From an uncultured Dehalococcoidia bacterium (GTDB lineage: Bacteria; Chloroflexota; Dehalococcoidia; Lucifugimonadales; CATQGZ01): a stretch of 64,000 nt of DNA. This document shows positions 2,601 to 50,040 of the stretch, piece by piece (positions within the stretch are counted from its first letter, which is position 1; each line of letters opens with the position of its first letter). The position numbers were made by a program, and so were the translations under genes. Under the pieces are notes generated by a model. The model was not told the origin of the DNA. It saw nothing but the letters and a program-made list of their open reading frames with translations, and did not search any database. The stretch is taken from the NCBI GenBank assembly GCA_958295685.2, contig OY282365.1, forward strand, positions 633,207 to 697,206. Direction: 5' to 3'.

Positions 2601-2802
2601 TTCGCCGAAAACTGTCCCAAACTGTTCCATTTTGTTCCATCTCGTAGCTGAGGGTTCGATTTCGTGGAACAAAAGTGGGGCACTTGTGGAACAGATGTGG
2701 AACAGAACCGGAGCAGTTCTGGGACAATTGTGGAACAGGCCTTCGGCGCTGGGTTGGCTACTTGCATGGGGGAAGTGTAGTACAGCGGTTCGGGGTTGTC
2801 AA
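2601..2802 (-). repeat. LexA-box promoter / phased-repeat cassette copy 1 (class A, TGTTCCAC)
   Basis: TTGACA(2797-2802)-17-TACACT(2774-2779), GAAC-CGCT-GTAC at 2780-2791, ATG 2767, 7 motifs at 11-bp spacing, core CTCAGCTACG 2643-2652, 3 inverted motifs. Confidence 0.85.
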
Positions 2803-2812
2803 GGGGGGGGGG

Positions 2813-3129
2813 TCTGAATCAGGATTCTCAGGATTGGGAAGATTGGGGATTGGCTGATGGGGCGATTTACGAATCGCCCCCACATGTTGGGGCGGCTACT
2901 GGCATAGCTGTTCAGACTTATGGGGTCTTTCGATCATTGTAGTCCTGATAAGCGGACGGCTGGTCTTCCCCACCCGCCCGCCCATTTGGAAACTGGGGGC
3001 AAGCCCCCAGACCCCCGGCCATTGTCTGAATCAGGATTTTCAGGATTGGAGGATTTTCAGGATTGGGAAGATTGGGGATTGGCTGATGCGGGTGATTCAC
3101 GAATCGCTCCTACGCGTTGGGGCAGTTAC
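2813..3129. repeat. Repeat cluster: two TCTGAATCAGGATT.. repeats, two GTAG-type REP palindromes, partial MITE left end
   Basis: AGGATT units at 2813 and 3025; palindromes GGGGCGATT-TACG-AATCGCCCC (2859) and GCGGGTGATTCACGAATCGCTCCTAC (3088); 2904-3020 aligns by eye with MITE 12243-12355. Confidence 0.8.
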
Positions 3130-3252
3130 GAATTGGACGCGGAGCGAGCCGTTCGAGTATCCTATGCCCGTCATATCGCCTGCGACCCGCAGCAGAGGCG
3201 GGTTTCGGGTGGATTTCTTTCGTCCCCGATCTTGGCGCGCGAGTGAGGCTTA

Positions 3253-3813
3253 GTGATAGACCAACTTCGAATCAGGGAGGCTGTCTCGTCGATCATTTCG
3301 GCCGCCGGAGAGGATCCGGACCGGGAGGGGCTGAGAGACACCCCTGACCGGGTGGCCCGCATGTACGCGTCCTTCTTCTCGGGCTTGGATCAGGATCCGC
3401 GGGAGACGCTCAGCACCGGATTCGACGAGGATTTCAGGGACGTCGTGGTTCTCCGCGACGTCCCTTTCTTCTCGATCTGCGAGCATCATCTGCTGCCGAT
3501 GGTGGGCAGGGCTCAGATCGGCTACATTCCGAACGGGCGGGTGGTCGGAGTTAGCAAGCTGGTCCGCGCGCTCGACATCCTATCCAGGCGTCCGCAGATA
3601 CAGGAGCGGATCACGGCCCAGCTCGTGGACGTGGTGCACGAGGCGGTGTCTCCCGACGGCGTGGGGGCCGTCTTGGACGCGGAGCACATGTGCATGGCTC
3701 TCAGGGGAGTGAGCAGGCCGGGGAGCCGCGTCGTGACGCGCTCGGTCCGCGGCAGCTTCTCATCGGGCGCGGCGACGCGGGACGGCCTGCTGGCGACGCT
3801 CGACCGGGGATAG
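3253..3813 (+). CDS. folE: GTP cyclohydrolase I
   Basis: GEDPDREGLRDTPDRVA, SICEHHLLP, RRPQIQERIT, EHMCMALRG. Confidence 0.95.
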   Translation: MIDQLRIREAVSSIISAAGEDPDREGLRDTPDRVARMYASFFSGLDQDPRETLSTGFDEDFRDVVVLRDVPFFSICEHHLLPMVGRAQIGYIPNGRVVGVSKLVRALDILSRRPQIQERITAQLVDVVHEAVSPDGVGAVLDAEHMCMALRGVSRPGSRVVTRSVRGSFSSGAATRDGLLATLDRG

Positions 3814-3814
3814 G

Positions 3815-4792
3815 GTGTACGGCTCCCTCACAACGGACAGTTTCGAGGAGGCGGCGGATCGTTGGGAGAGGCTGCTCCCGCGGTGCTGGACCAACACTGT
3901 CTTCGTCACCCCGGCCTGGCAGCGTGTCTGGTGGCGCAGCTTCGGGCGGGAGAGCGAACTCTTCATCCTCTCGGTGCGCGATCGGGGTGACGAGCTCGGC
4001 ATCGCTCCGATGATGATCAGGGACGGGGCGCTCTCGTTCGTGGGCGGCTCCGACCTGTTCGACTATAACGATTTTCTGGTGCCGAAGGGCGGCGAGGACC
4101 GATTCTATCGGGCGCTGCTCGATGAGCTGATGGGCCTCGATTGGGACAGGATCGAACTCGAGTCGATCCCCCAGGGTTCTCCCACGCTGCACGGCCTGCC
4201 GGCGGCTGCCGCAGAGGTCGGCCTTTCGGCGGACGTGGAGGAGGAGGACGTGACGCCCTTGGTCCGTCTCCCGGGCACCTGGGACGAGTATCTCTCAGGT
4301 CTGGCCAAGAAGAACAGACACGAGCTGCGAAGGAAGCTGCGCCGTCTTGACGCGGCGGGGTCGGTGAGGCAGTCGGAGTGCCGAGATCCGGGCGGCGATC
4401 ATGGCTGCATGGACGAGTTCTTCAGCCTGATGAGAGCCAGCAGCCCGGAGAAGGCCGAGTTCTTGAACCGGGAGCGAGAGGGCTTTTTCCGCGCGATTGC
4501 GTCCGAGCTGGGCCCCGCAGGCGTCTTCAGGCTCTATTTTCTGGAGGTCGACGGCCGAAGGGTCGCGTCGTGCATCTGCTTCGACCATTCCGGCTCCTTC
4601 TTGCTGTATAATAGCGGCTACGATCCGGGGTACTCATCTTTGAGCGTGGGGCTGCTCAACAAGGCGTTATGTATCAAGGAGGCGATCGAGGAGGGTCGAG
4701 GCTCGTTCGATTTCCTGAGGGGGCCGGAGCGCTACAAGTACCATCTCGGTGGAACGGACCGGCTTCTCTACCGCATGGTCGTGCGCCGATGA
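3815..4792 (+). CDS. GNAT family N-acetyltransferase (CelD/BcsL-like, Acetyltransf_6)
   Basis: VFVTPAWQRVWW, DYNDFL, LPGTWDEYL..L.KKNRHELRRKLRRL, YNSGYDP, FDFLRGPERYKYHLG. Confidence 0.85.
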   Translation: MYGSLTTDSFEEAADRWERLLPRCWTNTVFVTPAWQRVWWRSFGRESELFILSVRDRGDELGIAPMMIRDGALSFVGGSDLFDYNDFLVPKGGEDRFYRALLDELMGLDWDRIELESIPQGSPTLHGLPAAAAEVGLSADVEEEDVTPLVRLPGTWDEYLSGLAKKNRHELRRKLRRLDAAGSVRQSECRDPGGDHGCMDEFFSLMRASSPEKAEFLNREREGFFRAIASELGPAGVFRLYFLEVDGRRVASCICFDHSGSFLLYNSGYDPGYSSLSVGLLNKALCIKEAIEEGRGSFDFLRGPERYKYHLGGTDRLLYRMVVRR

Positions 4793-4838
4793 AGCCGGGG
4801 GTGACGGCGAGCTCCTGGGGTAGCTTACGGAGAGTCGG

Positions 4839-6065
4839 ATGTCGGGGCTAAGCGTCGCTATGCTGAGCTTCCACGGCTGTCCCTTCGCTCGGCTGGGCGA
4901 AGGGGACGGCGGGGGGATGAACGTCTACGTTCTCCAGGCGGCGCGGGAGCTTGCCAAGCTGGGGCACCGCGTCGACATCTTCACCCGCCATCACGACCCT
5001 GACGACCTCGAGGTCGTGGACATCGAGGCCGGGGTGCGTCTGATCCACGTCAGGGCCGGGCCGTTCGACATCGACAAGGGCGGCCTGTACGAGCGGATTC
5101 CCGAATTCCTGGCGAATCTCACCGCCTTCCATCGGGAACGCGGCACACGGTACGACGTCGTCCACAGCCATTACTGGCTGTCCGGCCCGGTTGGCGAGGC
5201 TCTGAGCGGCAGGTGGAACGTGCCCCACGTGATCACCTTCCACACGCTGGCCAAGACCAAGAAGATGGCCCACGCCGGAGAGGTGGAGTCTCCACGGCGC
5301 CCTGTGGTCGAGCAGCGCATGATAGGAGCGGCCGACGCGGTCGTGGTGTCGACGGAGGACGAGATAGAGGCGATCCGCAGCCTGTATAGGATGCCTCTCC
5401 ACAACGTCAGGGCGATCTCCGCGGGCGTCGACCTGGACCTCTTCAGGCCCATGCCGAAGCGCGCTGCCAGAGACGCGCTCGGTCTGGACGGAGAGAACTT
5501 GGTGCTGTACGTCGGCAGGCTGGAGCCGCTGAAGGGTGTCGACATCCTGCTGGAGGCTCTGCGGCGTCTCGATTACAGCCCCTGCACCAGGCTGATGGTG
5601 GTCGGAGGGAGCTTCGAGGAAGGCGAGATGCTTCGTCTGAAGTCTTCGGCTGAGCGGCTGGGATTGGGAGACAGCATCACGTTCACCGGCTCGGTCGATC
5701 AGCACGAGCTGCCGCTGTACTACAATGCGGCCGACATCTTCGCCCTGCCGTCCTACTATGAGAGCTTCGGCCTGGCCGCCCTGGAGGCTATGGCGTGCGC
5801 GACTCCGGTGGTGGTTTCGAGAGTCGGCGGCCTCAAGACTTTCGTGAAGGACGGCCTGTGTGGGTATCTGATACCCAGGCGCTGTCCCGACCCGTTCGCC
5901 CAGAGGCTGGACATGCTGCTGGCCAATCCTGCGCTGAGGGAGAAGATGGGCATGGCCGGCCGGACCACCGCTCTGGGTATGAACTGGGGCCGGACGGCCG
6001 ACGGTCTGGCAGATCTGTACAGCGGTCTGACCGGCGCGATTGTCGAGAGCGCGCGAGGAGGATGA
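4839..6065 (+). CDS. GT4 glycosyltransferase, MshA (D-inositol-3-phosphate glycosyltransferase)-like
   Basis: GDGGGMNVYV, HSHYWLSG, FHTLA, VGRLEPLKG, PSYYESFGLAALEAMAC. Confidence 0.85.
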   Translation: MSGLSVAMLSFHGCPFARLGEGDGGGMNVYVLQAARELAKLGHRVDIFTRHHDPDDLEVVDIEAGVRLIHVRAGPFDIDKGGLYERIPEFLANLTAFHRERGTRYDVVHSHYWLSGPVGEALSGRWNVPHVITFHTLAKTKKMAHAGEVESPRRPVVEQRMIGAADAVVVSTEDEIEAIRSLYRMPLHNVRAISAGVDLDLFRPMPKRAARDALGLDGENLVLYVGRLEPLKGVDILLEALRRLDYSPCTRLMVVGGSFEEGEMLRLKSSAERLGLGDSITFTGSVDQHELPLYYNAADIFALPSYYESFGLAALEAMACATPVVVSRVGGLKTFVKDGLCGYLIPRRCPDPFAQRLDMLLANPALREKMGMAGRTTALGMNWGRTADGLADLYSGLTGAIVESARGG

Positions 6066-6068
6066 TCA

Positions 6069-6812
6069 ATGGCAACCAAGGTTGAGAAAGAGCCGAACAT
6101 TCTTCAGAGGTTCGAGCGCCACTTCCAGAGCAGGACGCTGGACGGACTCATGGGACTGGTGCCGCTAATCGTCACCATCATCGTGGTCGTCTTCGTCATT
6201 GGGAAATCCGACGACTTCCTCAGACCTCTGCTGAGGAGCGTCGAGGTCATGGCCGGCACGGACCAGGACGGCCCGCTGCGAAGCGTCGCAGCCACCGTGT
6301 TGCGCGTCCTGGGCTATCCGATCGTCGGGCTGATCTTAAGCATTATCATCTTCTACCTCGTCGGGCTGATGGCTTCCAAACGGTGGGGCCGCAGAGTGAT
6401 GGACATGCAGAGCGCAATCATGAGCCGCATACCCGTCGTCAAGGTCATATTCGGAGTCACTCAGCAGGCGATGACGGCCCTGACCTCGCAGTACAACTTC
6501 AGCCGGGTCGTCTTCTTGGAGTGGCCGCGTGACGGGATGGTCGCCATGGGGTTCGTCACCGGCCGCGCCTACTCACATGAGAAGAGCGAGTCCATGGTCG
6601 TGGTCTACATTCCGACCGTTCCGAATCCCACTTCGGGCAACATGGCGTTCGTCCCCGAGGACGACGTGATCGAGACCGACCTGCGGGTCGAGGATGCCAT
6701 GAAGCTGGTGTTTTCGGGCGGGATCGTGCTGCCTGAAGCGATTTCCCTGGCCAGGCTCGGTAAGAGTGACTTCGGTCTCATCGGCCAGTTCGAATCGGAC
6801 GATTCGGTGTGA
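6069..6812 (+). CDS. DUF502 domain membrane protein
   Basis: Two TM segments, RIPVVKVIF, VYIPTVPNPTSG signature. Confidence 0.88.
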   Translation: MATKVEKEPNILQRFERHFQSRTLDGLMGLVPLIVTIIVVVFVIGKSDDFLRPLLRSVEVMAGTDQDGPLRSVAATVLRVLGYPIVGLILSIIIFYLVGLMASKRWGRRVMDMQSAIMSRIPVVKVIFGVTQQAMTALTSQYNFSRVVFLEWPRDGMVAMGFVTGRAYSHEKSESMVVVYIPTVPNPTSGNMAFVPEDDVIETDLRVEDAMKLVFSGGIVLPEAISLARLGKSDFGLIGQFESDDSV

Positions 6813-6827
6813 GCCGGAGGATGAGGC

Positions 6828-7745
6828 TCAGTCCAGCCGCCTCTCGAACCAGAGGGTCTCCGACGTCTTCCTGAAGCCGAGTTTGACGTAGGCGGCGAGG
6901 GCAGCCACGTTCTGGGAGTCGACCTCCAGCTCGACAGCCTCGACGCCCCCTGCTTGGAGGTAAGACATTCCCGCGGCCACCGCGGCCTTGCCGACTCCCC
7001 TGCCCCGATACTCCGGGCGGACGCCCACCATGGATATCCATCCGATGGAGCCGAAGCGGTTCTGCGCCCGCGTGGTCCAGCAGTAGGCGGCCTTCCTGCC
7101 CGAGTGGAGAATGAACATGATGCCGTCCGGGTCCGATCTGTCCATGCGTACCCTGGCGGAGATCTGCTCGACCGTGTTGGGGCAGAACCCCCACGTGCCA
7201 TCGAAGGCCGAGTTCTGCAGTTCGGTTAGGGCCTCCTCGTCTCTGTCCAGGGTGAACGGGCGAAGCGTGTACCCCTTCGGGAGTTCGATCTCCGGCGCGT
7301 CGGCCGCCTCCCATCTCATGTCCCAGTAGTCTCTGGCCGTCTCGAACCCGGCGGAGCGGAGGGCCTGGTGAGCGTCCCTGTCCGACGAGGGGGCCCGCAC
7401 GTGCAGAGCGCCGGCCCCGAGGCTCACGGCGTGATCGACCGCCGCCGCAATCAGAGAGCTTTCGATCCCCATGCCTCGATAGGCATCGAGGATGCCTCCC
7501 GTGACGACGGCCCTGTCTATCATCAGTTCAGGGGAGACGTGGAGGAAGCCTGCGGGGGCGCCGTCGAACGAGGCCAGGAGGATGTCCCGCTCCGGGGCGC
7601 AGGACGGGTCTTCCAGGCGCTCCCTCATCAAGCGCGGCGAGTATGCGCTGGGCGTGGCCTCGCAGTCGAATACGGCGTTGAAGAGTCCGGTGAACGCCTC
7701 CAGCCCATCCCAGGAGAATCTGCGTATTTCCGTTCCGGCGCTCAT
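6828..7745 (-). CDS. Tandem-GNAT acetyltransferase, MshD (mycothiol synthase)-like
   Basis: Two GNAT folds; GVRPEYRGRGVG, VELEVDSQN..A..Y.KLGF; ATG 7745 overlaps tmk stop (ATGA). Confidence 0.78.
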   Translation of the reverse strand: MSAGTEIRRFSWDGLEAFTGLFNAVFDCEATPSAYSPRLMRERLEDPSCAPERDILLASFDGAPAGFLHVSPELMIDRAVVTGGILDAYRGMGIESSLIAAAVDHAVSLGAGALHVRAPSSDRDAHQALRSAGFETARDYWDMRWEAADAPEIELPKGYTLRPFTLDRDEEALTELQNSAFDGTWGFCPNTVEQISARVRMDRSDPDGIMFILHSGRKAAYCWTTRAQNRFGSIGWISMVGVRPEYRGRGVGKAAVAAGMSYLQAGGVEAVELEVDSQNVAALAAYVKLGFRKTSETLWFERRLD

Positions 7746-8539
7746 GGGGGCGGCATCCGCCGGGCCGCAGGCGCTTCGACCATCTCCCGCGCTCTGGGCG
7801 GCAGACGGTCCACGACCGCGCCGAGCACGTCCTGGGCTATCGTGTCCGCCGGTCTGTCGGCGTCCAGTACCAGCCACCTGAGCGGCTCCCGTTCGGCCAG
7901 CGCGAGGTAGCCCGCCCTTACCCGTTCGTGAAACTCGGGCGGCTCCTCCTCGAATCGAGCGCCTTCTTCATCCCTCTCGGCGGTGTCGAAGCCTGCGCCC
8001 TGCTGCGTCCGCCCGGCACTCTTGCGTTCGGCGGCTTCGCCGGTCCCGAAGGCGGAGTTTCCGGGGTCCAGCGGCAGCTTCATTTGAAACGAGCCGACGC
8101 GCCGCAGTCCGACCTCGGGCTCGCAGTCCAGCAGGATCGTGAGGTTTGGCCGTATGCCCTGCGCGGCCAGGTCGTTGACCACCTCGACGCGCTCCAGCGG
8201 GATCCGCCTTCCATAGCCCTGGTAGGCGGTGGTGGAGTCGCCGTATCTGTCGGCGATGATCACGGCGTCCGGGCGGTCGAGGATCGGCCTGACGACCTTG
8301 CCGACCAGTTCTGCGCGCGCGGCTGCGAACAGGAAGAGTTCGGCGCCGTGGGAGATCGTCTCCCCGGCGCCGGGCCCCCGCTTCAGCCAGTCTCTCACCT
8401 GCCATCCGAGCCGAGTCGATCCGGGTTCGCGTATCTCCCTGACGTCCACCCCTGCCGCGCGGAGCCGGGCGGCGAGGCGGTGAGCCTGGGTCGACTTGCC
8501 CGACCCTTCTCCCCCCTCGAAAGTTACGAAAAGCGACAT
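7742..8539 (-). CDS. tmk: Thymidylate kinase
   Basis: FVTFEGGEGSGKSTQ P-loop, REPG, ELFLFAAARAE, DRY..STTAYQGYGR. Confidence 0.95.
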   Translation of the reverse strand: MSLFVTFEGGEGSGKSTQAHRLAARLRAAGVDVREIREPGSTRLGWQVRDWLKRGPGAGETISHGAELFLFAAARAELVGKVVRPILDRPDAVIIADRYGDSTTAYQGYGRRIPLERVEVVNDLAAQGIRPNLTILLDCEPEVGLRRVGSFQMKLPLDPGNSAFGTGEAAERKSAGRTQQGAGFDTAERDEEGARFEEEPPEFHERVRAGYLALAEREPLRWLVLDADRPADTIAQDVLGAVVDRLPPRAREMVEAPAARRMPPP

Positions 8540-8555
8540 GGGCGTGTCGTCGTTC

Positions 8556-10193: not shown

Positions 10194-10260
10194 CGCGGGC
10201 GCGGCCTCTTCGGGCAGTTGGGGCCCTGCGCCGCGGGGTCTCGTCGGGTCCGCCGCTGGC

Positions 10261-10863: not shown

Positions 10864-10864
10864 G

Positions 10865-11764: not shown

Positions 11765-11862
11765 ATCAGCCCCTCCGTCTCCCGGAATCGGGTAAGCCTG
11801 TGGCTGCATTATACCTGCGCGGGGCAGCCGCCCGCAAACGCCGGTCATGCGGCGAACCTGCG

Positions 11863-12143
11863 AGAAATTTTTGCGAAAGTGTCGCATTTGCGGCGTTTCG
11901 CAGCCATTTCGTAGCTGAGAGGGGCGATTTTGCCTGACACTATGTGACACTATGTGACACTATGTGACACTTATGTGACACTTTTCTGACACTTATGTGA
12001 CACTTATGTGACACTTATGTGACACTTATGTGACACTTTCTGACACTTATGTGACAGGCGCTTCAGGAGTCGCGCGGGCTGGTTTGTGGAGAGAGGCGGC
12101 TGTGTCATGGGGATACTCTAGCACAGCGGTTCGTGGCTGTCAA
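11863..12143 (-). repeat. LexA-box promoter / phased-repeat cassette copy 2 (class B, TGTCAC) with 12-unit tandem array
   Basis: TTGACA(12138-12143)-17-TAGAGT, GAAC-CGCT-GTGC, ATG 12108; plus-strand TGACA at 11935,11945,11955,11965,11976,11987,11998,12009,12020,12031,12041,12052; core 11910-11919. Confidence 0.88.
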
Positions 12144-12242
12144 TTGTCTGAATCAGGATTCTCAGGATTTGAGGATTTTCAGGATTGGGGACCAAATCCC
12201 CGCCCACCCAATTCGGGTGGGCGGCGTGATGGACGTCAGGCT

Positions 12243-12476
12243 GTAACAGTTCAGAGTTGGTGAGGTCTTTCGATCAGCGCAGTCCCGATAAGCGGACGGC
12301 TTTGTCTCCCACCCACCCGCCCATTTGAAACTGGGGGCAAAGCCCCCAGACCCCCTGCCAGAGGGGTGAACCGGTCTCCCGCCAGCTCCGTCAGTGTGTC
12401 TATGGCCAGACCCCCTGCCAGAGGGGTTCACCCCTCTGGACTCCCCCTTCGGGTCTCACAGAGTCTGAACAGTTAC
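12243..12476. mobile_element. MITE with IS66-like ends (GTAAC.GTTCAG) and perfect 8-bp target duplication
   Basis: Left GTAACAGTTCAGAGTTGGTGAGG, right CTCACAGAGTCTGAACAGTTAC; GTCAGGCT at 12235-12242 and 12477-12484; no transposase ORF. Confidence 0.85.
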
Positions 12477-12542
12477 GTCAGGCTGGGCCGGATTGGTTGT
12501 CTGAGTCAGGACTGGAGGATTGGCAGGATTGGGAGCGGAGTC

Positions 12543-17292: not shown

Positions 17293-17412
17293 GCGCCCAT
17301 AGCGCTAGTTGGAAGTCACGAGGATGAATTGAGCGATGGAAGCGGCGCTCGTCAGTCGGTTAGCATCCCTCACCCGCGTTCGTTTCCACTGTCACAACCA
17401 GGAGTCGACACT

Positions 17413-18513
17413 ATGAACAACAGATTGAAGCCTGTCTTTGTAGTCTTCTGCGCCGCGTTGCCGTTCCTGGTGTTGCTGGCCGGGTGCGGCACGGACCCTG
17501 CGCCGACGCCGACGCCCGTCCCTACTCCCACGGCCATGCCCGAACCCACGGCCATGCCCGAACCCACGGCCATGCCTGAACCCACGGCCATGCCCGAACC
17601 CACGGCTATGCCCGAACCTACGGCTATGCCCGAACCCACGGCCGTGCCTGAACCTACGGCAGAGCCTACGACGGAGGCGCCGCCCGATGGCGGTTTCCAG
17701 ATTCCCCCGCCGACTGTGACGATGCTCGCGGACGGCGTGTATCACTACTTTGGGTTCTTTACCGGCAGCTTGGTCGTGGTATCCGACGACGGTGTTCTGA
17801 TCACCGATCCGTCCAATCCGATGAGGGCGCAGTCTCTCAGGGACGAGATCTCGAAGGTCACGGACGCCCCGGTGACGACCATTGCGCTCACGCACGAGCA
17901 CTTCGACCACGTGGGCGGGACAGGCGTGTTCCCGGACGCGAACGTTCTCTGCCACTGGAACTGCAAGGCTGCCTTCGAGCTGAGTCCCCTTGGGGACGTC
18001 CCGCTCAAAATCGAGACGTTCGATGACACGATGGACGTAGTGATGGGAGACAAGACGGTCCAGCTTCATTATCTGGGGCCCGGCGACGGCGACGCGACCA
18101 CCATCATCTACATGCCGAAGGAGCAGATCGTGGTCACGTCGGACATGTACGAGCCCCGCGCGCTCACCCACAAGAACTGGGTGGACGACAAGAACTTCGC
18201 CGGCACGCGGCGCATCCTCAACGAAATTAGCACGTGGCCGATAACCCATGCCATCAACGCCCACTCGCCGGGGACCGATCCGGTCGACCTCATGGAGAAC
18301 GTTGGGTACTACAACGACCTGTACGACGCGGTGAAGGCGGAGGTGGACGCGGCAATCGCGGCGGCGGGCGGCGCTACGTTCGGCGCGTACTCGCTGTTCG
18401 ACACCCTGCCGCAAACGCTGGAGCTTGCGCAGTACAGCGACTGGGCGAACTACGACACTTCGTTCCCGCGCCACGTGGAGAGGATGCTGCTGGGGATTTA
18501 CCACGGGGACTAA
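17413..18513 (+). CDS. Lipoprotein MBL-fold metallo-hydrolase (paralog 2) with (PTAMPE)n linker
   Basis: Lipobox LLAGC, Pro/Thr repeat stalk, THEHFDHVGG; catalytic domain nearly identical to paralog 1. Confidence 0.87.
   Translation: MNNRLKPVFVVFCAALPFLVLLAGCGTDPAPTPTPVPTPTAMPEPTAMPEPTAMPEPTAMPEPTAMPEPTAMPEPTAVPEPTAEPTTEAPPDGGFQIPPPTVTMLADGVYHYFGFFTGSLVVVSDDGVLITDPSNPMRAQSLRDEISKVTDAPVTTIALTHEHFDHVGGTGVFPDANVLCHWNCKAAFELSPLGDVPLKIETFDDTMDVVMGDKTVQLHYLGPGDGDATTIIYMPKEQIVVTSDMYEPRALTHKNWVDDKNFAGTRRILNEISTWPITHAINAHSPGTDPVDLMENVGYYNDLYDAVKAEVDAAIAAAGGATFGAYSLFDTLPQTLELAQYSDWANYDTSFPRHVERMLLGIYHGD
17527..17661 (+). repeat. In-frame 18-bp tandem repeat (CCCACGGCCATGCCCGAA) x~7
   Basis: Encodes PTAMPE repeats. 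Confidence 0.9.
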
Positions 18514-24578: not shown

Positions 24579-24758
24579 GGCAGAGGTCCTCGTCGGGAGT
24601 GAATTGAGGCAGGCGTATACTATCATCAGTCCTCATTGAGTGTCTGAATCAGGATTCTCAGGATTGGAGGATTGGCAGGATGGGGAGGGCGCCTGTTGAT
24701 CTGGGGCGCGCCGATGACGTCATGATCATGATTGCCGAAGGAGGGACGGAGGGGGGTA

Positions 24759-25069
24759 GTAGCTGTTCAGACTCTGTGAGGTCCGAAGGGAAGTCCCCTT
24801 GACGACGGCGAACTCTTGTACTATATTATTCATATGGAAGCAGCCCAGCCAGCAACAGCCCTGAGACCCCTGTTCCACAACTGTACCGGAACTGCTCCGG
24901 TTCCGTTCCACATCCGTTCCACAAATGCCCCACATTTGTCCCACGAAATCGAACCCTCAGCTACGGAGATGGAACAAATGGAACAGTTTGGGACAGTTTT
25001 CGGCGAACCACAGGCCGCGACCGCCCTGCGCTTGCAGATAGGGAGACCTCATCAACTCTGAACAGTTAC
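24759..25069. mobile_element. IS66-like MITE ends enclosing cassette copy 3
   Basis: GTAGCTGTTCAGACTCTGTGAGG ... CCTCATCAACTCTGAACAGTTAC; flanks GGGGGGTA / GGAGAGTA (6/8 match). Confidence 0.72.
24799..25007 (+). repeat. LexA-box promoter / phased-repeat cassette copy 3 (class A)
   Basis: TTGACG(24799)-17-TATATT(24822), GAAC-TCTT-GTAC 24810-24821, ATG 24834, 7 motifs at 11-bp spacing, core 24956-24965, 3 inverted TGG(A/G)ACA. Confidence 0.85.
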
Positions 25070-30652: not shown

Positions 30653-30654
30653 GG

Positions 30655-35634: not shown

Positions 35635-35898
35635 TTGCTGAAAACTGCCCCAAACTGTTCCATTTTGTCCCATCTCGTAGCTGAGGGTTCGATTTCGTGG
35701 TACAAATGTGGGGCACTTGTGGAACAGGTCTGGAACGGGACCGGTACAGTTCCGGGACAATTGTGGGACAGGTCCCGGGGGTGAGGGCGCCCCTTGTGTG
35801 CCCTTACGGGCCGGTTGGTTCCGTGCACGTGGTTCGGCATGATCATGGCTGCGTTCCTTCCATGCGAATATCCTAGTACATGGGTTCGCGGCTGTCAA
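35635..35898 (-). repeat. LexA-box promoter / phased-repeat cassette copy 4 (class A), interrupted by a RAYT/REP fragment
   Basis: TTGACA(35893-35898)-17-TAGGAT, GAAC-CCAT-GTAC, ATG 35863, core 35676-35685; insert encodes IMPNHVHG plus a REP-like palindrome. Confidence 0.83.
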
Positions 35899-35991
35899 GG
35901 GCCGGGGGGAGTGGGGAGTGGAGAGTGGGAGTGCTCCTCAGATCCCCTACCAGAGGGGAGAACGTGGCGAGTGGTCAGTGCTCCTCAGATT

Positions 35992-38933: not shown

Positions 38934-38945
38934 AGCCTGCCTCCG

Positions 38946-40511: not shown

Positions 40512-40517
40512 CCGGCG

Positions 40518-40892: not shown

Positions 40893-40968
40893 CAGGAATA
40901 CTCCAGGCTCGGCGGGTCGGCGGCAGGCGGAGCCTGCGAGAAAGACGGGTCCGGCAGACGGAGAGCCG

Positions 40969-41838: not shown

Positions 41839-41920
41839 CTCCTCTCCGGGCGGCCGTGTTGGGTGTCCGGCCGACATTATAGTCGGCGGCCTCCCGCAAA
41901 GGAAGCCGCTGCCGTGTCAA

Positions 41921-41960
41921 GGGGATCCCCCTTCGGACCTCACAGAGTCTGAACAGTTAC
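41921..41960. mobile_element. Isolated MITE end
   Basis: CCCCCTTCGGACCTCACAGAGTCTGAACAGTTAC, matching 12443-12476 and 24759-24798 (reverse). Confidence 0.75.
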
Positions 41961-42052
41961 GAGCCTTGCTATCGTATTGAGGCCTCCCGCCCAAAGATGT
42001 ATGGTTGTCAGTCCAGCCGACCGGTACAACCAATCAGCCTCCGGGGAGTGTC

Positions 42053-42469
42053 ATGGCAAAGCTCAAGCACATAGCGATCGCGACGCAGGACCCCGATTCG
42101 GTGTCCGAGTTCTACAAGACGGTCTTCGATCTGGATGAGGTGGGGAGGGTGGACAGCGACAATGCCGAGGGATACTACCTGACCGACGGGAACGTCAACG
42201 TCGCTATTCTTCGCTTCAAGAGCGAGGTGGTGGCCGGAGAGTTGGGCGCGGGCTATTCGGGCATCCATCACATCGGCTTCCAGGTGGAGGACGCCGCGGC
42301 GACCGACCTGGCGCTCAGGAAGGCCAACGCGCCCCCGAAGGATGAGATCAACAAGACGCTGAACTCGGCGATGGGAGGGGGGCACGGCGGCCGGAACGTC
42401 GAGACGAAGTACTCGGGGCCGGACGGCGTGATGATCGACATCTCTCAGGGCGGCTGGGTGGGCGCCTAG
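42053..42469 (+). CDS. VOC/glyoxalase family protein
   Basis: KLKHIAI, YLTDGNVNVAIL, GIHHIGFQVED, GPDGVMIDIS. Confidence 0.88.
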   Translation: MAKLKHIAIATQDPDSVSEFYKTVFDLDEVGRVDSDNAEGYYLTDGNVNVAILRFKSEVVAGELGAGYSGIHHIGFQVEDAAATDLALRKANAPPKDEINKTLNSAMGGGHGGRNVETKYSGPDGVMIDISQGGWVGA

Positions 42470-42555
42470 GGGCGGCCGCCGTCGTCGAACAGCCGAGGGC
42501 CCCGTTCTCGGACGAGCGGGCGGGCTTTCGTCCATCCCGGAACCTTGGTCTCGGT

Positions 42556-44829: not shown

Positions 44830-44988
44830 AACCCGGCCTCCTGGTAATTACGTGATTACTCTGTTGGACAGACGGCCGGACAGCAGGACGGCCCGGACCT
44901 CCCGATGCTTCCTCGCCTTCCGGCGGGACGAAGCCCCCCTATGCCCTGACGGACGCCGGGGCAGGGCCTGCCGACCCGTCCCGCTCGG

Positions 44989-45240
44989 TCAGTCTCTGGA
45001 CTGACCGAAGTACTCGTAGTTGAGATCGATGAACTTGTCCCATTCGGAGGGCGTGTCTTCCTCCGCGAAGATGGCAACCACGGGGCACACCGGCTCGCAG
45101 GCCGCGCAGTCGATGCACTCCTCGGGGCTGATCAGGAGCATCTTGTGGTCGGGGGCTTCGTAGATACAGTCGACCGGGCACACGTCGACGCAGGAGCGGT
45201 CGAGCACGTCCACGCACGGCTCGGCGATGATGTAGGTCAT
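44989..45240 (-). CDS. fdxA: 7Fe ([3Fe-4S][4Fe-4S]) ferredoxin
   Basis: CVDVLDRSCVDVCPVDC and CIDCAACEPVCP. Confidence 0.9.
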   Translation of the reverse strand: MTYIIAEPCVDVLDRSCVDVCPVDCIYEAPDHKMLLISPEECIDCAACEPVCPVVAIFAEEDTPSEWDKFIDLNYEYFGQSRD

Positions 45241-45342
45241 GCTTGTGGGGGCCTCCCTTAGTTTCTATCGGTGATTCAGGATTGCGTCTGCGCCCAATTA
45301 TAATAGGTGAGTTTCGCGCCTTTCAAGAACCTGGGGCGTCGC

Positions 45343-45432
45343 AGGTCAGTGGTCAGTGGCCCAGACCCCCCTGCCAGAGGGGAGAACCCCTCTGGACTCC
45401 CCCTTCGGATCTCACCAACTCTGAACAGTTGC
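45343..45432. mobile_element. Partial MITE (right part) preceded by GGTCAGT heptamer repeats
   Basis: CCAGACCCCCTGCCAGAGGGG..CCCCTCTGGACTCCCCCTTCGG..CTCTGAACAGTTGC aligns with 12405-12476. Confidence 0.75.
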
Positions 45433-45488
45433 GACGTCGCAGGTGTGCTGGCATATGCCGAGGGTGCCGCGTCTGGTATGAGACGCGC

Positions 45489-46367
45489 TTATATTTGTCT
45501 CAGCCTGGGGTCGAACCGGTCCCGCATCCAGTCGCCCAGGAAATTGAAGGCGGCCACGGTGAGGAATATGGCGATCCCCGGAACGATGGCGATCCACCAG
45601 GCCTTGAGTATGTAGGTCTGTCCCTCGGCTACCATCGCTCCCCAGGTCGGCCTCGTGCCGCCGGCGCCGATTCCGAGGAAGCTCAGGCCAGCCTCTGCTA
45701 TGATCAGCCCGCCGACCCTCATGCTGGTGATCACGAGCACCACGTGAGTCACCTGGGGCCACAGGTGCCGGTAGATTATCCGCCAGTCCGAAGCGCCGGC
45801 CACCCTGGCCAGCGCCACGTAGTCCCGCTCCCTCAGGGACAGCACTTCGCCCCTCACGTTTCGGGCTCCGGCGGACCATGAAGACAGCGCAAGCAGCCAT
45901 ATGACGGTGACGAGGCCTCCTCCTATGGTCACGGCGACGACCAGGGCGAGCAGCAGGAACGGCAGCGCCAGCCACAGGTCGACGAGGCGCATGATGACCT
46001 CGTCTATGATGCCGCCGTAGTACCCCGCCACTATCCCGGACACGGTGCCCACGAGCAGGCCGAAGCCCAGGGCGATGCCGGCCACCATGAGGGACGTGCG
46101 GGAGCCGACTAGGAGCCGGCTGAAGATGTCGCGGCCCAGGTGGTCGGTCCCCAGCACGTGGTCGATGGAGCCTTCTTCGACCCAGAAGGGCGGGATGAAC
46201 CGCGCGCGGAGGTCCTGGTCCCGAGGGTCGTGGGGCGCGAGGCTGTCGCCAAAGAGGGCGGTGACGGCCACCGCGGCGAGGACGACCGCCGGAATCACGG
46301 GCCAGCGGCGCAGGAACTCCCACGACACTCGTGGAACGTCCAGGAATCTCCGGGCCGCAGTCAGCAA
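45489..46367 (-). CDS. ABC peptide/nickel transporter permease (DppC/OppC)
   Basis: LGTDHLGRDIFSRL, EAA-like loop ARVAGASDWRI, EAGLSFLGIG. Confidence 0.93.
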   Translation of the reverse strand: MLTAARRFLDVPRVSWEFLRRWPVIPAVVLAAVAVTALFGDSLAPHDPRDQDLRARFIPPFWVEEGSIDHVLGTDHLGRDIFSRLLVGSRTSLMVAGIALGFGLLVGTVSGIVAGYYGGIIDEVIMRLVDLWLALPFLLLALVVAVTIGGGLVTVIWLLALSSWSAGARNVRGEVLSLRERDYVALARVAGASDWRIIYRHLWPQVTHVVLVITSMRVGGLIIAEAGLSFLGIGAGGTRPTWGAMVAEGQTYILKAWWIAIVPGIAIFLTVAAFNFLGDWMRDRFDPRLRQI

Positions 46368-46380
46368 AGCACGCCCTCTC

Positions 46381-47328
46381 TCAGGAGTACCGGATGCGCG
46401 GGTCGACGAGAGCGTAGAGCAGGTCGGCCACGAAGTTCATGCCCACGTAGACCACGCCGAAGAACAGGACTATCCCCGACAGAAGCGGGAAGTCGTTGTT
46501 CCAGGTGGCCTGCACCGCCAGTCGGGCGATTCCCGGCCAGGCGAACACCGTCTCGATGAAGAGGACGCCGGTTATGAAGGATGCCAGCACCAGCGCGGAG
46601 ACTGTCAGCGGCTGGACGAGGGCGTTCCTGAGGGCGTGCTTCCAGATGACCAGCCATTCGGTCACTCCCTTGGCCCGGGCCAGCTTCACGTACTCCGAGT
46701 CCAGAATCTCCAGCATGGAAGAGCGGGTGAGGCGCACGTAGCTGGCCAGAGGCTCGAAGGCCAGCACGACGGCCGGGAGCACCATGTGCCTGATCTCCGT
46801 AACGAGGCCCTCATGAATCTCGCGCCCCGATACGGGCAGCCAGCCGAGGTTCACGGCGAAGATGTATATGGCCACGATGGACAGCCAGAAGCTCGGCGTG
46901 GCCTGGCCCACCAGCGCAAGAGATCGGCCGAGGTAATCGAGGACCGATGCCCTCCTGACCGCCGAGAGCACACCCAGGGGTATGCCTACCAGGGTGGCCA
47001 GGACCCAGCCCGCCAATGCCAGCTGGGCGGTCGCTCCCAGCCGTGCCTGGATCGACTCCCTGACCGGCTTTTCTCCGTTGAGGCTCTTGCCGAGGTCTCC
47101 TCTGAGAATCCTTCCCATCCACACCACGTACTGGACGGGGATGGGCCTGTCCAGGCCCCATTTCTTCTGGAGGTGCTCCTTCGCCGTGGGCGCGATGCCG
47201 TAGGCGTCGTCCCTGATGAACATGAGCATGGGGTCCGGGCCGGCTCTTGAAAGGCTGAAGACCACGATGGTTATTCCCCACATGGTCAGGACTCCGAAGA
47301 CCAGTCTCCGGTAGATGAACCTTCTCAT
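46381..47328 (-). CDS. ABC peptide/nickel transporter permease (DppB/OppB)
   Basis: GLDRPIPVQY, GDLGKS, YVKLARAKG, HALRNAL, ETVFAWPG, DPRIR. Confidence 0.94.
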   Translation of the reverse strand: MRRFIYRRLVFGVLTMWGITIVVFSLSRAGPDPMLMFIRDDAYGIAPTAKEHLQKKWGLDRPIPVQYVVWMGRILRGDLGKSLNGEKPVRESIQARLGATAQLALAGWVLATLVGIPLGVLSAVRRASVLDYLGRSLALVGQATPSFWLSIVAIYIFAVNLGWLPVSGREIHEGLVTEIRHMVLPAVVLAFEPLASYVRLTRSSMLEILDSEYVKLARAKGVTEWLVIWKHALRNALVQPLTVSALVLASFITGVLFIETVFAWPGIARLAVQATWNNDFPLLSGIVLFFGVVYVGMNFVADLLYALVDPRIRYS

Positions 47329-47378
47329 GGTCTCCTAACTTGCCGGGCGGCGGGCCCGGCGTACCCGGGCGGCAACTA

Positions 47379-47415
47379 CGGTGAGGGGAGACTGCCGGGC
47401 AGCCTCCCCTCACCG
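47379..47415 (-). terminator. GC-rich hairpin between SBP and permease genes (partial terminator or mRNA stabiliser)
   Basis: CGGTGAGGGGAGACTGCC/GGCAGCCTCCCCTCACCG; no U-tract. Confidence 0.5.
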
Positions 47416-47453
47416 TTCTGAGCGCGTCCGATTGCTCGTTCGGGAGCGCTGCG

Positions 47454-49472
47454 TTACTTGAGCTCTATGTGCGCCCACGGGTTGATGGCGCCGCGGAAGC
47501 CCATCGGGTAGGACCACGCCTCGATCTTGTTGGGGTTGTAGGTCCAGACGCTGCGGAGGATCACGACGCCCGGCGCCAGCGCCTGCTCGCGCATGAAGTC
47601 GGCGAACTTCCGGTTGATCTCTATGCGCTTGTCGTAGTCCTGCTCCGCGCTGGCCATGAGATTGGCTTCAGAGCACTGGGGCGCCTCGACGCCGCGGCTC
47701 TTGCCGCCCCGGCTGAGCGAGCTGCACTGTATTGCCCTCGGCCAGTCGTAAGGCATCAGGGCCGACCACCCGTCGAGCCACGGCTCGACGGCGGAGCGGG
47801 TAACCACGCCCGGCCGCCACACCTCGTAGGCGTAGTGGTTCACGGGAACGTCGATTCCAATGTCTCTGAGCATACCGCCGACGGCGTCGGAGAGCGCGGC
47901 GCGGGTCGCCCGGCCGTAGTTCCAGCCGTACATCGGCATCTCGAACCGGATGCCGTCGCTCCCGCGGGGATACCCTGCCTTGTCCAGCAGCGACTCCGCA
48001 TAGGCCGGGTCGTAGCCGAACGCCCACTTGGGGTCCCAGTTGGGGTCGCGTGGGTCGAAGAGAAGCTGGTGTATGGGCAGGCCGACGCCGCCCAGTATCT
48101 CATCGTTCAGCAGTTCGCGGTCTATGGCGAACGCGATGGCTTCGCGGACGAGCCTCGCCTGCTCCATGTCGTCGATGCCCGGCGGGTTGTTATTGTCGTC
48201 GGGCTTGAACGGGTTGCCTATCCAGGGGAGGTCGTGCACGTAGGTGTTCCTCTCCAGGGTCTCGCCCGTCTTGGCGTGCGTCTCCTCCCACAGGTTGCCG
48301 CTGAACCACAGCCCGTAGGCCGCGCCCGCGCTGGTGGGCGCGGTCTTGAACCCGGACTCCTGAAGGTCTAGGGACTGCGAGGTGGGCACGTCGCTCACGT
48401 CGGCCGAGCCGGCCTCAAGGGCCGCCTGCTTGACCGTCGGATCGGGTGTCTGCGCCCAGACCAGGGAGCTGTATGTGGGGGCTTTCCACCAGTGGTCTGG
48501 GACCGCCTCGAATATGAACCTGTCGCCCCGGACCCACTCGATGAGCTTGAACGGCCCGCTGCCGGCCGTGTGGTCGACGTACCAGTCCTCGCCCAGTTGG
48601 TCGAAGGCGCCTTTGCTGAGGATGCACTCCTGGAGTCCGTCCTCTCCGAAGAACGCCTGCTGCCACTGCGGCAGGAAGGAGGCCCAGCTCAGTTCCACCG
48701 TGTTCTCGTCCACGGCGACCTGCTCATTGCTGCCCAGGAAGGCGCCCAGGTTGCCGCTGCCGTCCGTGGCGCTCTGCGGGTTCGTGTGCGGGTTGGCGTC
48801 GTTGATGCTCCAGACGACGTCGGCCGCGGTCACGTTGCCAAAGTCCCTCCCCTCGAAGCTGTGGAACGGCACGTTCTCCTGGATGTTGACCGTGGCGCCG
48901 AGGTAGTCCGCGTGCAGCTCCCAGGACTTGGCCAGCTTTCCGATCCGCTCCCCAGCCATGTTGACGGTGAACAGGTCCTCGCAGGTCGTCTTGCTGCTGT
49001 ACGGCCCTCCGTAGAAGGCGTTTCTGCCTCCGCCCGAGTCGGGGACGTAGTTGGTGGCGAACCTGACCTCTCCGGCCTTGGTCTTCGGACTGGGGGCCGG
49101 CCTCACCACCCGCGCGGGGGTGGGAATGGGGACGGGCGTTACGACCACTATCCTCTCTTCTATCTTGGTTACCACTCTTTCGACCGGCACTTCCTTGACT
49201 TCAACCACCACCTCCCTGACCACGACCGTCTCGCCCGGGACCTCGACCTCCCTCACGACCTCCTTGATGACCTCCACGGGCTTCTCGATCTCCACGGTCT
49301 CGATGACGCGCTTTTCCACTTCGACTATCTTCTCGACCGGCACCTCTCTGACAACTTCCTGAGTCACCACGCGCTCGACGGGTACCTCCCTGACTACCTC
49401 TGTTGAGCACGCCATCAGTATTAGAGCCGACGAGACGGCGGCGAAGATGATCCAACTTGAGATGTTATTCAT
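47454..49472 (-). CDS. Family 5 ABC substrate-binding lipoprotein with V/E/K/P-rich N-terminal stalk
   Basis: Lipobox LMAC, VREVPVE(K/R) repeats, LAKSWE, TAADVVWS, GSGPF, VREAIAFAIDR. Confidence 0.9.
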   Translation of the reverse strand: MNNISSWIIFAAVSSALILMACSTEVVREVPVERVVTQEVVREVPVEKIVEVEKRVIETVEIEKPVEVIKEVVREVEVPGETVVVREVVVEVKEVPVERVVTKIEERIVVVTPVPIPTPARVVRPAPSPKTKAGEVRFATNYVPDSGGGRNAFYGGPYSSKTTCEDLFTVNMAGERIGKLAKSWELHADYLGATVNIQENVPFHSFEGRDFGNVTAADVVWSINDANPHTNPQSATDGSGNLGAFLGSNEQVAVDENTVELSWASFLPQWQQAFFGEDGLQECILSKGAFDQLGEDWYVDHTAGSGPFKLIEWVRGDRFIFEAVPDHWWKAPTYSSLVWAQTPDPTVKQAALEAGSADVSDVPTSQSLDLQESGFKTAPTSAGAAYGLWFSGNLWEETHAKTGETLERNTYVHDLPWIGNPFKPDDNNNPPGIDDMEQARLVREAIAFAIDRELLNDEILGGVGLPIHQLLFDPRDPNWDPKWAFGYDPAYAESLLDKAGYPRGSDGIRFEMPMYGWNYGRATRAALSDAVGGMLRDIGIDVPVNHYAYEVWRPGVVTRSAVEPWLDGWSALMPYDWPRAIQCSSLSRGGKSRGVEAPQCSEANLMASAEQDYDKRIEINRKFADFMREQALAPGVVILRSVWTYNPNKIEAWSYPMGFRGAINPWAHIELK

Positions 49473-49534
49473 GGGGCTTCCTCCACAGTGCTGCGCTTCC
49501 TATCAATACCCGTTGCCACCAGCCTCCGGCTCAG

Positions 49535-49576
49535 GGATTATCACGTTTCGGGTGTGTGTGTCAAATTCTGTTGACG
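49535..49576 (-). promoter_or_regulatory. Transporter operon promoter with overlapping GTCAA-N6-TTGAC palindrome
   Basis: Minus strand TTGACA-16-GATAAT; GTCAAATTCTGTTGAC at 49560-49575. Confidence 0.55.
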
Positions 49577-49580
49577 GTCC

Positions 49581-49710
49581 GTAACTGTTCATGAGGTCCT
49601 TCCGATCAGCGCCAGTCCTGATAAAATCGGATGGCTGGTTTCCCCACCCGCCCACCCCTTTGGAAACTGGGGGCAGAGCCCCCAGACCCCCTGCCAGAGG
49701 GACTGGGGCG
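49581..49710. mobile_element. Partial MITE (left part)
   Basis: GTAACTGTTCA..GAGGTC..CGATCAGCG..GATAA..CCCACCCGCCCA..GAAACTGGGGGCA.AGCCCCCAGACCCCCTGCCAGAGGG aligns with 12243-12366. Confidence 0.75.
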
Positions 49711-49759
49711 ACGAGCCGGTCCTTGCGTCCGGGGGCCTCCGGGGCTCGGCGGCGGCGGG

Positions 49760-50040
49760 AAATTTTTTGCGAAAGTGTCGGATTTTGCGGGCATTTCGCG
49801 GCCATTTCGTAGCTGGGAGGGCCTCAGACGGCTCGGAATTACGTGACACTATGTGACAGTTATGTGACACTTATCTGACACTTTTGTGACACTTATCTGA
49901 CACTTTTGTGACAGTTTGTGACACTTTTGTGACACTATCTGACAGGTCAACGCAGGCGATGCAGGAGTCCTGCGGGCGGTTTGTGGAGAGAGGCGGCTGT
50001 GTCATGGGAATACTCTAGCACAGCGGTTCGTGGCTGTCAA
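49760..50040 (-). repeat. LexA-box promoter / phased-repeat cassette copy 5 (class B) with 10-unit array
   Basis: TTGACA(50035-50040)-17-TAGAGT, GAAC-CGCT-GTGC, ATG 50005; plus-strand TGACA at 49844-49940, spacing 10-11 bp; core 49808-49815. Confidence 0.88.

Follow-up and report, generated by a model that had tools for sequence, protein, structure and literature searches.

A candidate non-autonomous promoter/leader element, possibly damage-inducible, present in many intergenic copies in uncultured Dehalococcoidia

Five intergenic cassettes of common design were found in a 64,000-nucleotide stretch of DNA (the window) from an uncultured Dehalococcoidia bacterium, whose genome (G000) comprises 2.67 Mb in 6 contigs, the window being positions 633207-697206 of contig C1. 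On balance, the cassettes are read as a non-autonomous, multicopy intergenic promoter/leader element of uncultured Dehalococcoidia that is probably damage-inducible. In the proposed mechanism, each copy would be a self-contained transcription unit of about 250-300 bp with a near-consensus sigma-70 promoter, which LexA would hold silent until DNA is damaged. The transcript, or the unwound DNA strand, would fold into a hairpin between an array of short words and a tail of inverted words, presenting an invariant core at the apex. The element would act as a portable promoter/leader before about 8% of the genes, and some copies of one subfamily (A type) travel as cargo of MITEs (miniature transposable elements with inverted repeats).

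Anatomy of the cassettes

The first-pass annotation of this DNA had described five loci with a shared layout, and the layout was recovered at all five. The promoter-box pattern TTGACR-N5-GAAC-N4-GTRC-TAnnnT has exactly five matches in the window and none in 100 shuffles. The shared core was recovered strictly in four copies, which match the pattern YCAGCTACGRRRTGG against 0.10 matches expected, while the fifth core (24958-24972) carries one additional G. The unit measures about 250-300 bp. A sigma-70 promoter, in which CGAAC-N4-GT(G/A)C directly adjoins the -10, is followed by a linker that varies, by 6-10 short words arrayed at a period of 11 nt, by the invariant core CAGCTA(C/T)G and, last, by the array word in inverted form, present 1-3 times. 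In a sigma-70 scan of the promoters of loci 2 and 3, both matched 10 of 12 consensus positions, and the B-type promoter scanned (cassette 2) has a TG-extended -10.

Two subfamilies are represented in the window, A (2601, 24799 and 35635) and B (11863 and 49760). A-type arrays consist of words like CTGTTCCAC and are followed by three inverted tail words, TGGAACA/TGGGACA; B-type arrays consist of GTGTCNN words and are followed by a single clear inverted word. The earlier figure of about three inverted copies thus holds for the A type and not for the B type. The reported spacing of 10-11 bp between motifs agrees with Tandem Repeats Finder, which returned a period of 11 for the arrays of cassette 2 (11935-12056; 11.5 copies, 92% match) and cassette 5 (49839-49944; 9.9 copies) and for a stretch of cassette 1 (2685-2738; 4.9 copies). 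The five cassettes are as follows.

Cassette 1 (A type), 2601-2805, minus strand: promoter and box 2774-2802; ATG 2765-2767; array about 2655-2738; core 2637-2651; three inverted words and TTTTCGGCGAA at 2601-2640; downstream an enolase-family gene, start 2508.
Cassette 2 (B type), 11863-12146, minus strand: promoter and box 12115-12143; ATG 12106-12108; array of 11.5 copies of the 11-nt GTGTCACATAA, 11935-12056; core 11904-11918; tail 11863-11903 with inverted GCGACAC; downstream pdxS, start 11764.
Cassette 3 (A type, inside a MITE), 24759-25069, plus strand: left terminal repeat of the MITE 24759-24772; promoter and box 24799-24827; ATG 24834-24836; array about 24866-24944; core 24958-24972; tail to 25007; right terminal repeat 25056-25069, the flanks agreeing at 6 of 8 bases; downstream ligD, start 25095.
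Cassette 4 (A2 type), 35635-35901, minus strand: promoter and box 35870-35898; ATG 35861-35863; linker carrying what is left of a decayed RAYT-like HUH gene (MPNHVHG...), about 35780-35846; array about 35690-35772; core 35670-35684; tail to 35635; downstream rho, start 35135.
Cassette 5 (B type), 49760-50043, minus strand: promoter and box 50012-50040; ATG 50003-50005; array 49839-49944 (9.9 x 11 nt); core 49802-49816; tail to 49760 with inverted CCGACAC; downstream a gene for a family-5 solute-binding protein, start 49472.

Family size and relatedness of copies

The family was searched in the whole genome by a relaxed promoter pattern, followed 90-320 nt downstream by the CAGCTACG core with at most one mismatch. 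The promoter module was matched 213 times and was accompanied by the core in 197 cases, which a first sorting divided into 71 A-type, 118 B-type and 8 other copies. The five copies reported in 64 kb are correct for the window but are a sample of about 197 genome-wide; this scale and the two subfamilies had been missed. All-against-all BLAST of the copies delimited a discrete unit with sharp limits, from about -30 to about +270; similarity climbs steeply from -60 to 0 relative to the -35 and falls off from +220 to +300. The median identity of a copy to its best partner is 92%; nine copies have a partner at least 98% identical and 59 stay below 90%, a spread that suggests a long copying history plus some recent events. 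When one sample's contigs were placed on the window, the depth was 3-6x, and the contigs break at the cassettes with joints explicable by other copies.

Every family match in the genome is on contig C1. Contigs C2-C6 (157 kb) hold no cassette promoters or cores, against about 11 expected at the density of C1, and they may be foreign, plasmid or mis-binned DNA.

The promoter box and LexA

In 79 A-type copies, TTGAC, CGAAC, GTAC and TA..T are each at least 90% conserved, as against 40-80% for the N4 and for the five nucleotides that follow the -35. Among the 118 B-type copies, those five nucleotides vary, and the next 20 positions show at least 90% conservation. Furthermore, CG[ACT]AC is kept in the cassettes of distant genomes with variable N4. 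Sigma-70 promoters do not depend on the spacer sequence, so that a variable N4 flanked by two conserved half-sites bears the mark of a protein that binds DNA as a dimer, and the earlier proposal that the box is under selection gains support from the A-type copies. The second half-site in 199 promoter-context matches is GTGC in 121, GTAC in 70 and GTCC in 8.

The box lies within the 17-nt spacer and abuts the -10, so that it overlaps the core promoter. This was interpreted earlier as a repressing geometry, and the same layout was indeed found in the recA promoter of this genome (TTGACAcggcGAACttttGTCCgTATACT), whose box geometry is identical to that of the cassettes. Its lexA promoter has GGACATTCGTTC in the spacer and GAACGAATGTCC after the -10. 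Dehalococcoides LexA binds GAAC-N4-GTTC. Across the order, boxes were found in 26 of 30 lexA upstream regions, 28 boxes in total, with the right halves GTTC (6), GTAC (9), GTCC (6), GTTT (3), GTGC (3) and GTAT (1); recA promoters with GAAC-N4-GTGC abutting or near the -10 were found in the genomes G023, G034 and G015. As far as these upstream regions tell, position 7 of the LexA box is degenerate in the order, and the cassette boxes fall within that range. From this comparison of sequences, the cassette box is rather likely to be a LexA operator, in which case the promoter would be silent until DNA damage. A LexA paralogue as the binder of the cassettes was rejected, a single LexA (C1:2504040-2504675) having been found in the genome, plus one weak S24 match.

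Other features of SOS-type promoters were encountered in these surveys. Two promoters apparently serve the recA gene of this genome (L011, 1340-1460): the LexA box belongs to the distal promoter, and the proximal one has a TG-extended -10, TGATACGAT; the proximal motif (G/A)TG(A/C)TAC(N)AT is conserved just 5' of recA in many genomes of the order. A radical-SAM gene has two GAAC-N4-GTTC boxes around its promoter (C1:457100-457180) and is likely an SOS gene, its N-terminus resembling, as we take it, spore-photoproduct-lyase/repair enzymes. A supposed cassette 5' of recA in G023 is more simply that gene's own SOS promoter.

Non-coding nature and pairing of array and tail

Read from the ATG, the core falls into all three frames (42/40/36 for B-type and 33/22/16 for A-type copies of this genome), and therefore the cassette is not coding, as had been argued from the reading frames of the window copies; no conserved reading frame was found over the copies of the genome. 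That the cassettes are decayed 5' ends of a protein-coding family, or small leaderless peptide open reading frames (ORFs), is very improbable. In its favour, 189 of 197 copies have an ATG or GTG at 4-6 nt past the -10, their initial 10-19 codons are alike within subfamilies, and the linker of one A-type subgroup (A2) is a gene remnant. However, the core frame is evenly spread, ORFs from the ATG run from 6 to more than 100 codons, and the 11-nt unit is not a multiple of three. The ATG 6 nt after the -10, noted previously, is present in all five window copies but is not conserved outside the genus, being absent at +1 from 5 of 10 elements read in metagenome-assembled genomes (MAGs).

The words of the array vary between copies (GTTCCA, GTTGCA, GTCTCA, GTGTCGC, GTGTCAG and TGTCCAG among others), and the tail carries the complement. 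Over the 197 copies, the longest perfect complement that an array finds in its own tail averages 9.30 nt, compared with 7.54 nt when the tail is taken from another copy and 5.57 nt when it is shuffled. In a set of 25 diverse elements drawn from several genomes, the own complement is 8.08 against 6.75 for permuted partners (standard deviation 0.23), and the observed value was attained in 0 of 200 permutations. The cassettes upstream of recA illustrate the exchange: in G000 the array reads GTGTCGG and the tail CCGACAC, and in its congener G001 they read GTGTCTCA and TGAGACAC. In the element L112, the array and tail words are strand-swapped with the core orientation unchanged.

At least six different words coexist within this one genome, each matched by its inverted copy, which argues against a single sequence-reading protein and for intramolecular pairing. 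The protein-loading site suggested in the first-pass annotation is thus unlikely, and the ideas of PhoB-like 11-bp direct repeats and DnaA boxes were dropped, as the words differ between copies. Minimum free energy folds of individual elements place the tail words mostly on array words, around the core, with z-scores of -3.0 and -3.9 for two window copies. Mismatches in the best own pairings are G-U in 25 and A-C in 23 cases, compared with 39 and 95 for permuted partners (Fisher p = 0.005); this relative excess of G-U points weakly to the sense RNA as the strand that folds. It is fairly likely that the transcript or the unwound DNA strand adopts a long interrupted hairpin, in which the tail would pair with the array and the core would stand at the apex.

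The family was not recognized earlier as a described one, and no Rfam match was found: a search of the window against Rfam 15 at the gathering threshold returned a tRNA only, and a search of two cassettes at E <= 10 returned only sub-threshold chance matches. No complementary site for the core, as a target in trans, was found elsewhere in the genome.

Position relative to genes

Genes were called with a self-trained ORF caller (1996 genes), and the gaps of the genome comprise 305 divergent, 1375 tandem and 310 convergent ones. Divergent gaps hold 109 of the 196 cassettes and convergent gaps hold 3; of those in tandem gaps, 71 are in sense and 13 in antisense orientation, a strong bias to sense (binomial 8e-11). 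A total of 180 of the 196 face the 5' end of a co-oriented gene, a strong bias that the first-pass annotation had missed, and 8 of 9 copies examined in other MAGs are followed by a co-oriented ORF with high G+C content at third codon positions (GC3). About 8% of the genes of this genome have a cassette promoter in front. Copies are retained almost only where they read toward gene 5' ends, presumably as a result of promoter activity together with selection against antisense read-through.

This placement is one argument for another possibility, that the cassettes are host-serving regulatory RNAs, either cis leaders or attenuators whose hairpin decides on read-through into the gene, or small RNAs. 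The conservation of half-sites and promoter hexamers in each copy, the covariation favouring pairing, and the relative sense-strand G-U excess are all in keeping with it. So are the TTTT after the last inverted word of A-type copies, the C-rich and G-poor composition of A-type arrays (C 38%, G 18%), which is like that of Rho-loading RNA, and the cassette upstream of recA in both G000 and G001. The genes faced in the window (those for the enolase-family enzyme, PdxS, LigD, Rho and the solute-binding protein) are functionally unrelated, however, and recA and lexA of this genome, which are both preceded by cassettes, retain their own promoters between cassette and gene. Positions are mostly unshared between congeners and types disagree at shared sites, the family is patchy over genera (16 of 88), B-type arrays are not C-rich, and no canonical terminator was found in the two cassettes scanned (loci 2 and 3). 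A host-serving regulatory RNA without an Rfam match is, on this evidence, unlikely.

Mobility

The bare cassette begins modally 3 nt before the -35 (27 copies), and its right edge is ragged. A separate MITE family has GTAACTGTTCAGAC terminal inverted repeats, 8-bp target duplications and lengths from 45 to about 510 bp. Among its terminal-repeat pairs, 12 of 35 have a perfect 8-bp duplication and 6 more match at 7 of 8 bases, whereas no control flank reaches 6. An A-type cassette lies inside 14 of 42 such pairs, including that at 24759-25069 in the window. The window also contains two members without cassette.

Cassette-less MITE, 12243-12476: 234 bp, perfect 8-bp duplication (gtcaggct), just 5' of cassette 2.
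Mini-MITE, 50057-50101: 45 bp, consisting of two GTAAC... terminal repeats only, flanks agreeing at 7 of 8 bases, nested in a repeat module 5' of cassette 5.

The terminal repeat was found in 32 of 201 genomes of the order, with up to 150 matches in one genome. Cassettes are abundant where it is rare or absent (G054, G061 and G105), and therefore they must also spread in another way. Judged as a MITE, the bare cassette is small, non-coding and multicopy, but terminal repeats and duplication occur only in the composite with some A-type copies. The earlier suggestion of a non-autonomous derivative of a mobile element finds partial support in the 14 A-type copies inside MITEs.

A source of the terminal-repeat MITEs was sought among known transposases. 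The long terminal-repeat pairs of this genome surround ordinary genes or repeats, and no transposase was found inside them. Ends beginning with GTAA and duplications of 8 bp are features of IS66, but IS66 was rejected as the parent, PF03050 being absent from the genome. IS6/IS240 was also rejected: 4 loci were found in 3 terminal-repeat-rich genomes, and none is flanked by the repeat. IS110 with a bridge or seek RNA was excluded by the absence of PF01548 from G000, and the cassette model gave no confident match at 10 IS110 loci of relatives. Over the order, IS110 and cassettes co-occur (17 of 30 genomes versus 31 of 121, p = 0.002), with genome size as a confounder. The terminal-repeat word occurs at the IS110 gene in L215 only among the 10 loci, L208 having one copy far from the gene. 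Two weak cassette-model matches (E 0.002 and 0.05) mark a degenerate cassette beside the IS110 gene of L215 (genome G131).

In that locus (L215, 1200-3000), the IS110-family transposase gene is bounded by GTAAC... repeats and the degenerate cassette lies directly downstream. It is either an IS110 inserted into a MITE, and was treated as such a nested insertion, or a clue to the parent element.

The RAYT-like remnant

In 36 cassettes (the A2 subfamily, including that at 35635), a decayed piece of a RAYT-like gene lies between promoter and array. The remnant has a constant orientation and spans the HUH motif region, and the similarity is confined to the linker and does not extend to core or tail; that at 35635 aligns to a RAYT-like protein of the order with a pairwise E of 1e-4. 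Intact RAYT-like genes were found in 18 of 201 genomes of the order, and 3 of the 14 RAYT-positive genomes scored are cassette-positive, compared with a base rate of 30 of 151. Since RAYT genes and cassettes do not co-occur, the remnant was treated as a captured fragment. The Y1 transposase domain (PF01797) was not matched in G000, G001-G004 or G023. On these grounds, namely the missing PF01797 in this genome and 5 relatives, the missing co-occurrence, and a similarity limited to the A2 linker, RAYT/IS200 was rejected as the mobilizer of the cassettes.

The remnant nevertheless raises the possibility that the cassettes are DNA substrates of a strand-specific HUH-type enzyme and ORF-less derivatives of an SOS-controlled RAYT-like gene, with direct repeats as iterons beside an inverted repeat and the CAGCTA... 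apex as the cleavage site, after the manner of REP/REPIN-RAYT systems or of rolling-circle origins. Besides the A2 remnants in one orientation, both RAYT-like genes of the genome G097 lie within about 400 bp of a cassette, and the bare cassette is without terminal repeats or target duplications, as HUH elements are. GTAG is the tag of many REPs (repetitive extragenic palindromes), and the cassette core usually contains CTAC, its complement. The absence of Y1 domains and of co-occurrence, however, tells against such a derivation, as do the cassettes outside A2, which carry no remnant, and the many words per genome, which would demand a structure-reading rather than a sequence-reading enzyme. 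REPs, moreover, are usually located 3' of genes, whereas the cassettes are 5'. Derivation from a RAYT-like gene is accordingly regarded as quite unlikely. GTAG-tagged REPs are treated in one report (PMC3733652).

Distribution across the order

The scan of the genome and its relatives proposed in the first-pass annotation gave about 197 copies in G000 and, over the order, family members in 30 of 151 genomes, which represent 16 of 88 genera. The model applied to the order used sequence only and was built from the final array words, the core and the tail of 27 elements; 13 genomes have at least 26 model matches each. A strict A-type core/tail pattern was matched at 14 loci in 9 MAG records (8 Dehalococcoidia and 1 uncultured Chloroflexi), and two further matches in apparent coding DNA of unrelated MAGs were taken as chance. 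Distant copies keep the architecture with different words (GTTCCA, GTTGCA, GTCTCA, TGTCCAG and others). Within the genus, copy numbers range from 197 in G000 and about 60 in G001 (70 pattern matches versus 12 in the control) to background level in G002, a 420-contig assembly.

Evidence against the proposed reading

Several findings weigh against a mobile element under LexA control. Concerning the box, the seven non-cassette SOS-type boxes of this genome (two at lexA, one at recA, two at the radical-SAM repair-like gene, and those at C1:94308 and C1:1972011) all have C or T at position 7, that is, GTCC or GTTC only, and a purine occupies this position in 191 of 199 cassettes. The cassette N4 (CGCT, TCCT) is also unlike the ATNC common in the lexA boxes of the order. 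LexA binding of the cassette boxes may thus be weak or absent to judge by their letters, and the LexA type assigned to the box earlier agrees with the lexA/recA range of the order but not with the genome's own boxes.

An alternative is a real promoter whose box is no LexA site and belongs instead to an extended -10 or to a different regulator; the cassettes would in that case be outward-reading repeats, either constitutive or differently regulated. The genome's own SOS boxes are never GTGC or GTAC; GTGC-TA creates a TG-extended -10 (TGC-TAnnnT in the B type), and GTGCTAC(N)AT, seemingly without the GAAC half, is common just 5' of recA in relatives. The CGAAC half, on the contrary, has no role in an extended -10 and is at least 90% conserved in both subfamilies, CG[ACT]AC persists in distant genomes while N4 varies, and A-type copies keep GTAC without TG. 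In addition, GTAC or GTGC right halves occur in 12 of the 28 lexA-upstream boxes of the order, and only one LexA-like repressor was found in the genome. A non-LexA box is possible but doubtful, and the LexA operator is preferred.

As to the other parts of the reading, the ORF caller is crude, and 27 cassettes overlapped a predicted ORF. Copies within one genome share descent, so that counts of conservation and covariation overstate the number of independent events, and some elements of G001 have an array/tail complement of only 6 nt. No terminal inverted repeats or target duplication were found in a search of the bare cassette, and no transposase tied to it was found among the IS66, IS240, Y1 and IS110 families. 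Finally, of the 45 sites in G001 whose downstream gene has a homologue in G000, 10 also have a cassette in G000, a share of 22% versus about 8% expected (p = 0.004), and some copies could be old and retained rather than mobile. The recA-upstream cassette is common to both genomes. The subfamily types at shared sites agree in only about half, however, and because the types are discordant, the shared sites are read as preferred sites with turnover and not as inherited ones, as far as sequence comparison allows.

Relation to known systems

The family does not fit MITEs in its bare form, nor REP-RAYT, IS110 or any Rfam family, and is akin to mobile promoters, BOX/Correia-type repeats and minisatellite MITEs. 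BOX of Streptococcus pneumoniae and Correia of Neisseria are modular, non-coding, multicopy intergenic repeats that form RNA or DNA hairpins and affect neighbouring genes; BOX has a variable number of internal tandem units (45-bp boxes), and Correia elements can supply promoters and have terminal repeats and a TA duplication. The cassettes are alike as modular intergenic hairpin repeats, without sequence relation. They differ in their words of 10-11 nt and their complete promoter with a repressor-type box, and the bare cassette has no Correia-like terminal repeats or TA duplication. LexA-controlled promoters of mobile elements are present in integron integrases and Tn5. A further case is the phage GIL01 (PMC4551915). 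In these promoters the box overlaps the core promoter, so that DNA damage turns them on, and the putative LexA box of the cassettes overlaps it likewise; in the GIL01 case, as that report presents it, and in the others, the promoter drives a protein gene of a single element, whereas that of the cassette faces non-coding DNA in about 200 copies.

Putative mobile promoters were described as near-identical promoter-bearing upstream regions before unrelated genes in one genome (PMC3575422). The cassettes are likewise promoter-bearing repeats before unrelated genes. Compared with that description, they have an operator promoter, a word array, an invariant core and inverted words, reach about 200 copies in 2.67 Mb, extend over the order and possess covarying internal words. 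BrickBuilt of Porphyromonas gingivalis is a MITE with an internal minisatellite (PMC4596501), which the 14 A-type cassettes with their tandem arrays inside MITEs with 8-bp duplications resemble in this respect. Most cassettes, unlike BrickBuilt as portrayed there, are outside MITEs and abundant where the terminal repeat is rare or absent. With the REP/REPIN-RAYT systems, as outlined in two reports (PMC8049555, PMC3733652), the cassettes share hundreds of intergenic hairpin repeats, and the A2 copies embed a RAYT-like remnant; in contrast to those systems, the cassettes are much longer, bear promoters and lie 5' of genes, and no intact RAYT was found in G000. Nor was a cognate RAYT gene flanked by the repeats found in this genome. 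A combination of operator promoter, covarying 11-nt word array and invariant core was not found in the literature searched; at least 16 genera retain it.

Should the box function as a LexA site, the small genome would have about 200 extra SOS promoters, mostly facing non-repair genes. To our knowledge, such a number would far exceed any described LexA regulon. The cassettes would then exemplify in nature, within a bacterial class that is widespread yet uncultured, how a mobile element can distribute a ready-made regulatory switch over a genome, and they offer a concrete, testable model of regulon growth by transposition. In the strongest form, the SOS operator-promoter would wire unrelated housekeeping genes (rho, pdxS, ligD and others) to damage and spread by a structure-reading mechanism, in which the array/tail hairpin with its exchangeable words would offer the CAGCTA core to an enzyme; this is improbable to judge from the sequences, but if true it would define a new class of self-contained, damage-triggered non-autonomous elements. 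Even if purely selfish, the elements point to a trans-acting factor that reads the core. In practice, short-read assemblies of such genomes break at the cassettes, which can also be mistaken for ORFs.

Neighbouring repeats

Between its genes, this genome is a mosaic made up of several families of repeats. Tandem arrays with a 9-bp unit (TCAGGATT / CCAATCCTG) occur at 3031-3066, 12153-12186 and 24650-24681, just 5' of cassette promoters, and a module CCAATCCTGAGAATCCTGATTCAGAC precedes the -35 in many B-type copies. A dispersed module, gcccccagtttccaaa..gggcgggtgggga..ccgcttatcaggact..gatcgaaagacc (2940-3000 and 49600-49690), flanks cassettes 1, 2 and 5. Apart from these, an 18-bp tandem repeat at 17527-17660 (7.4 copies, 92% match) lies within a predicted coding region, 17329-18513 on the plus strand, which probably encodes a repeat-containing protein.

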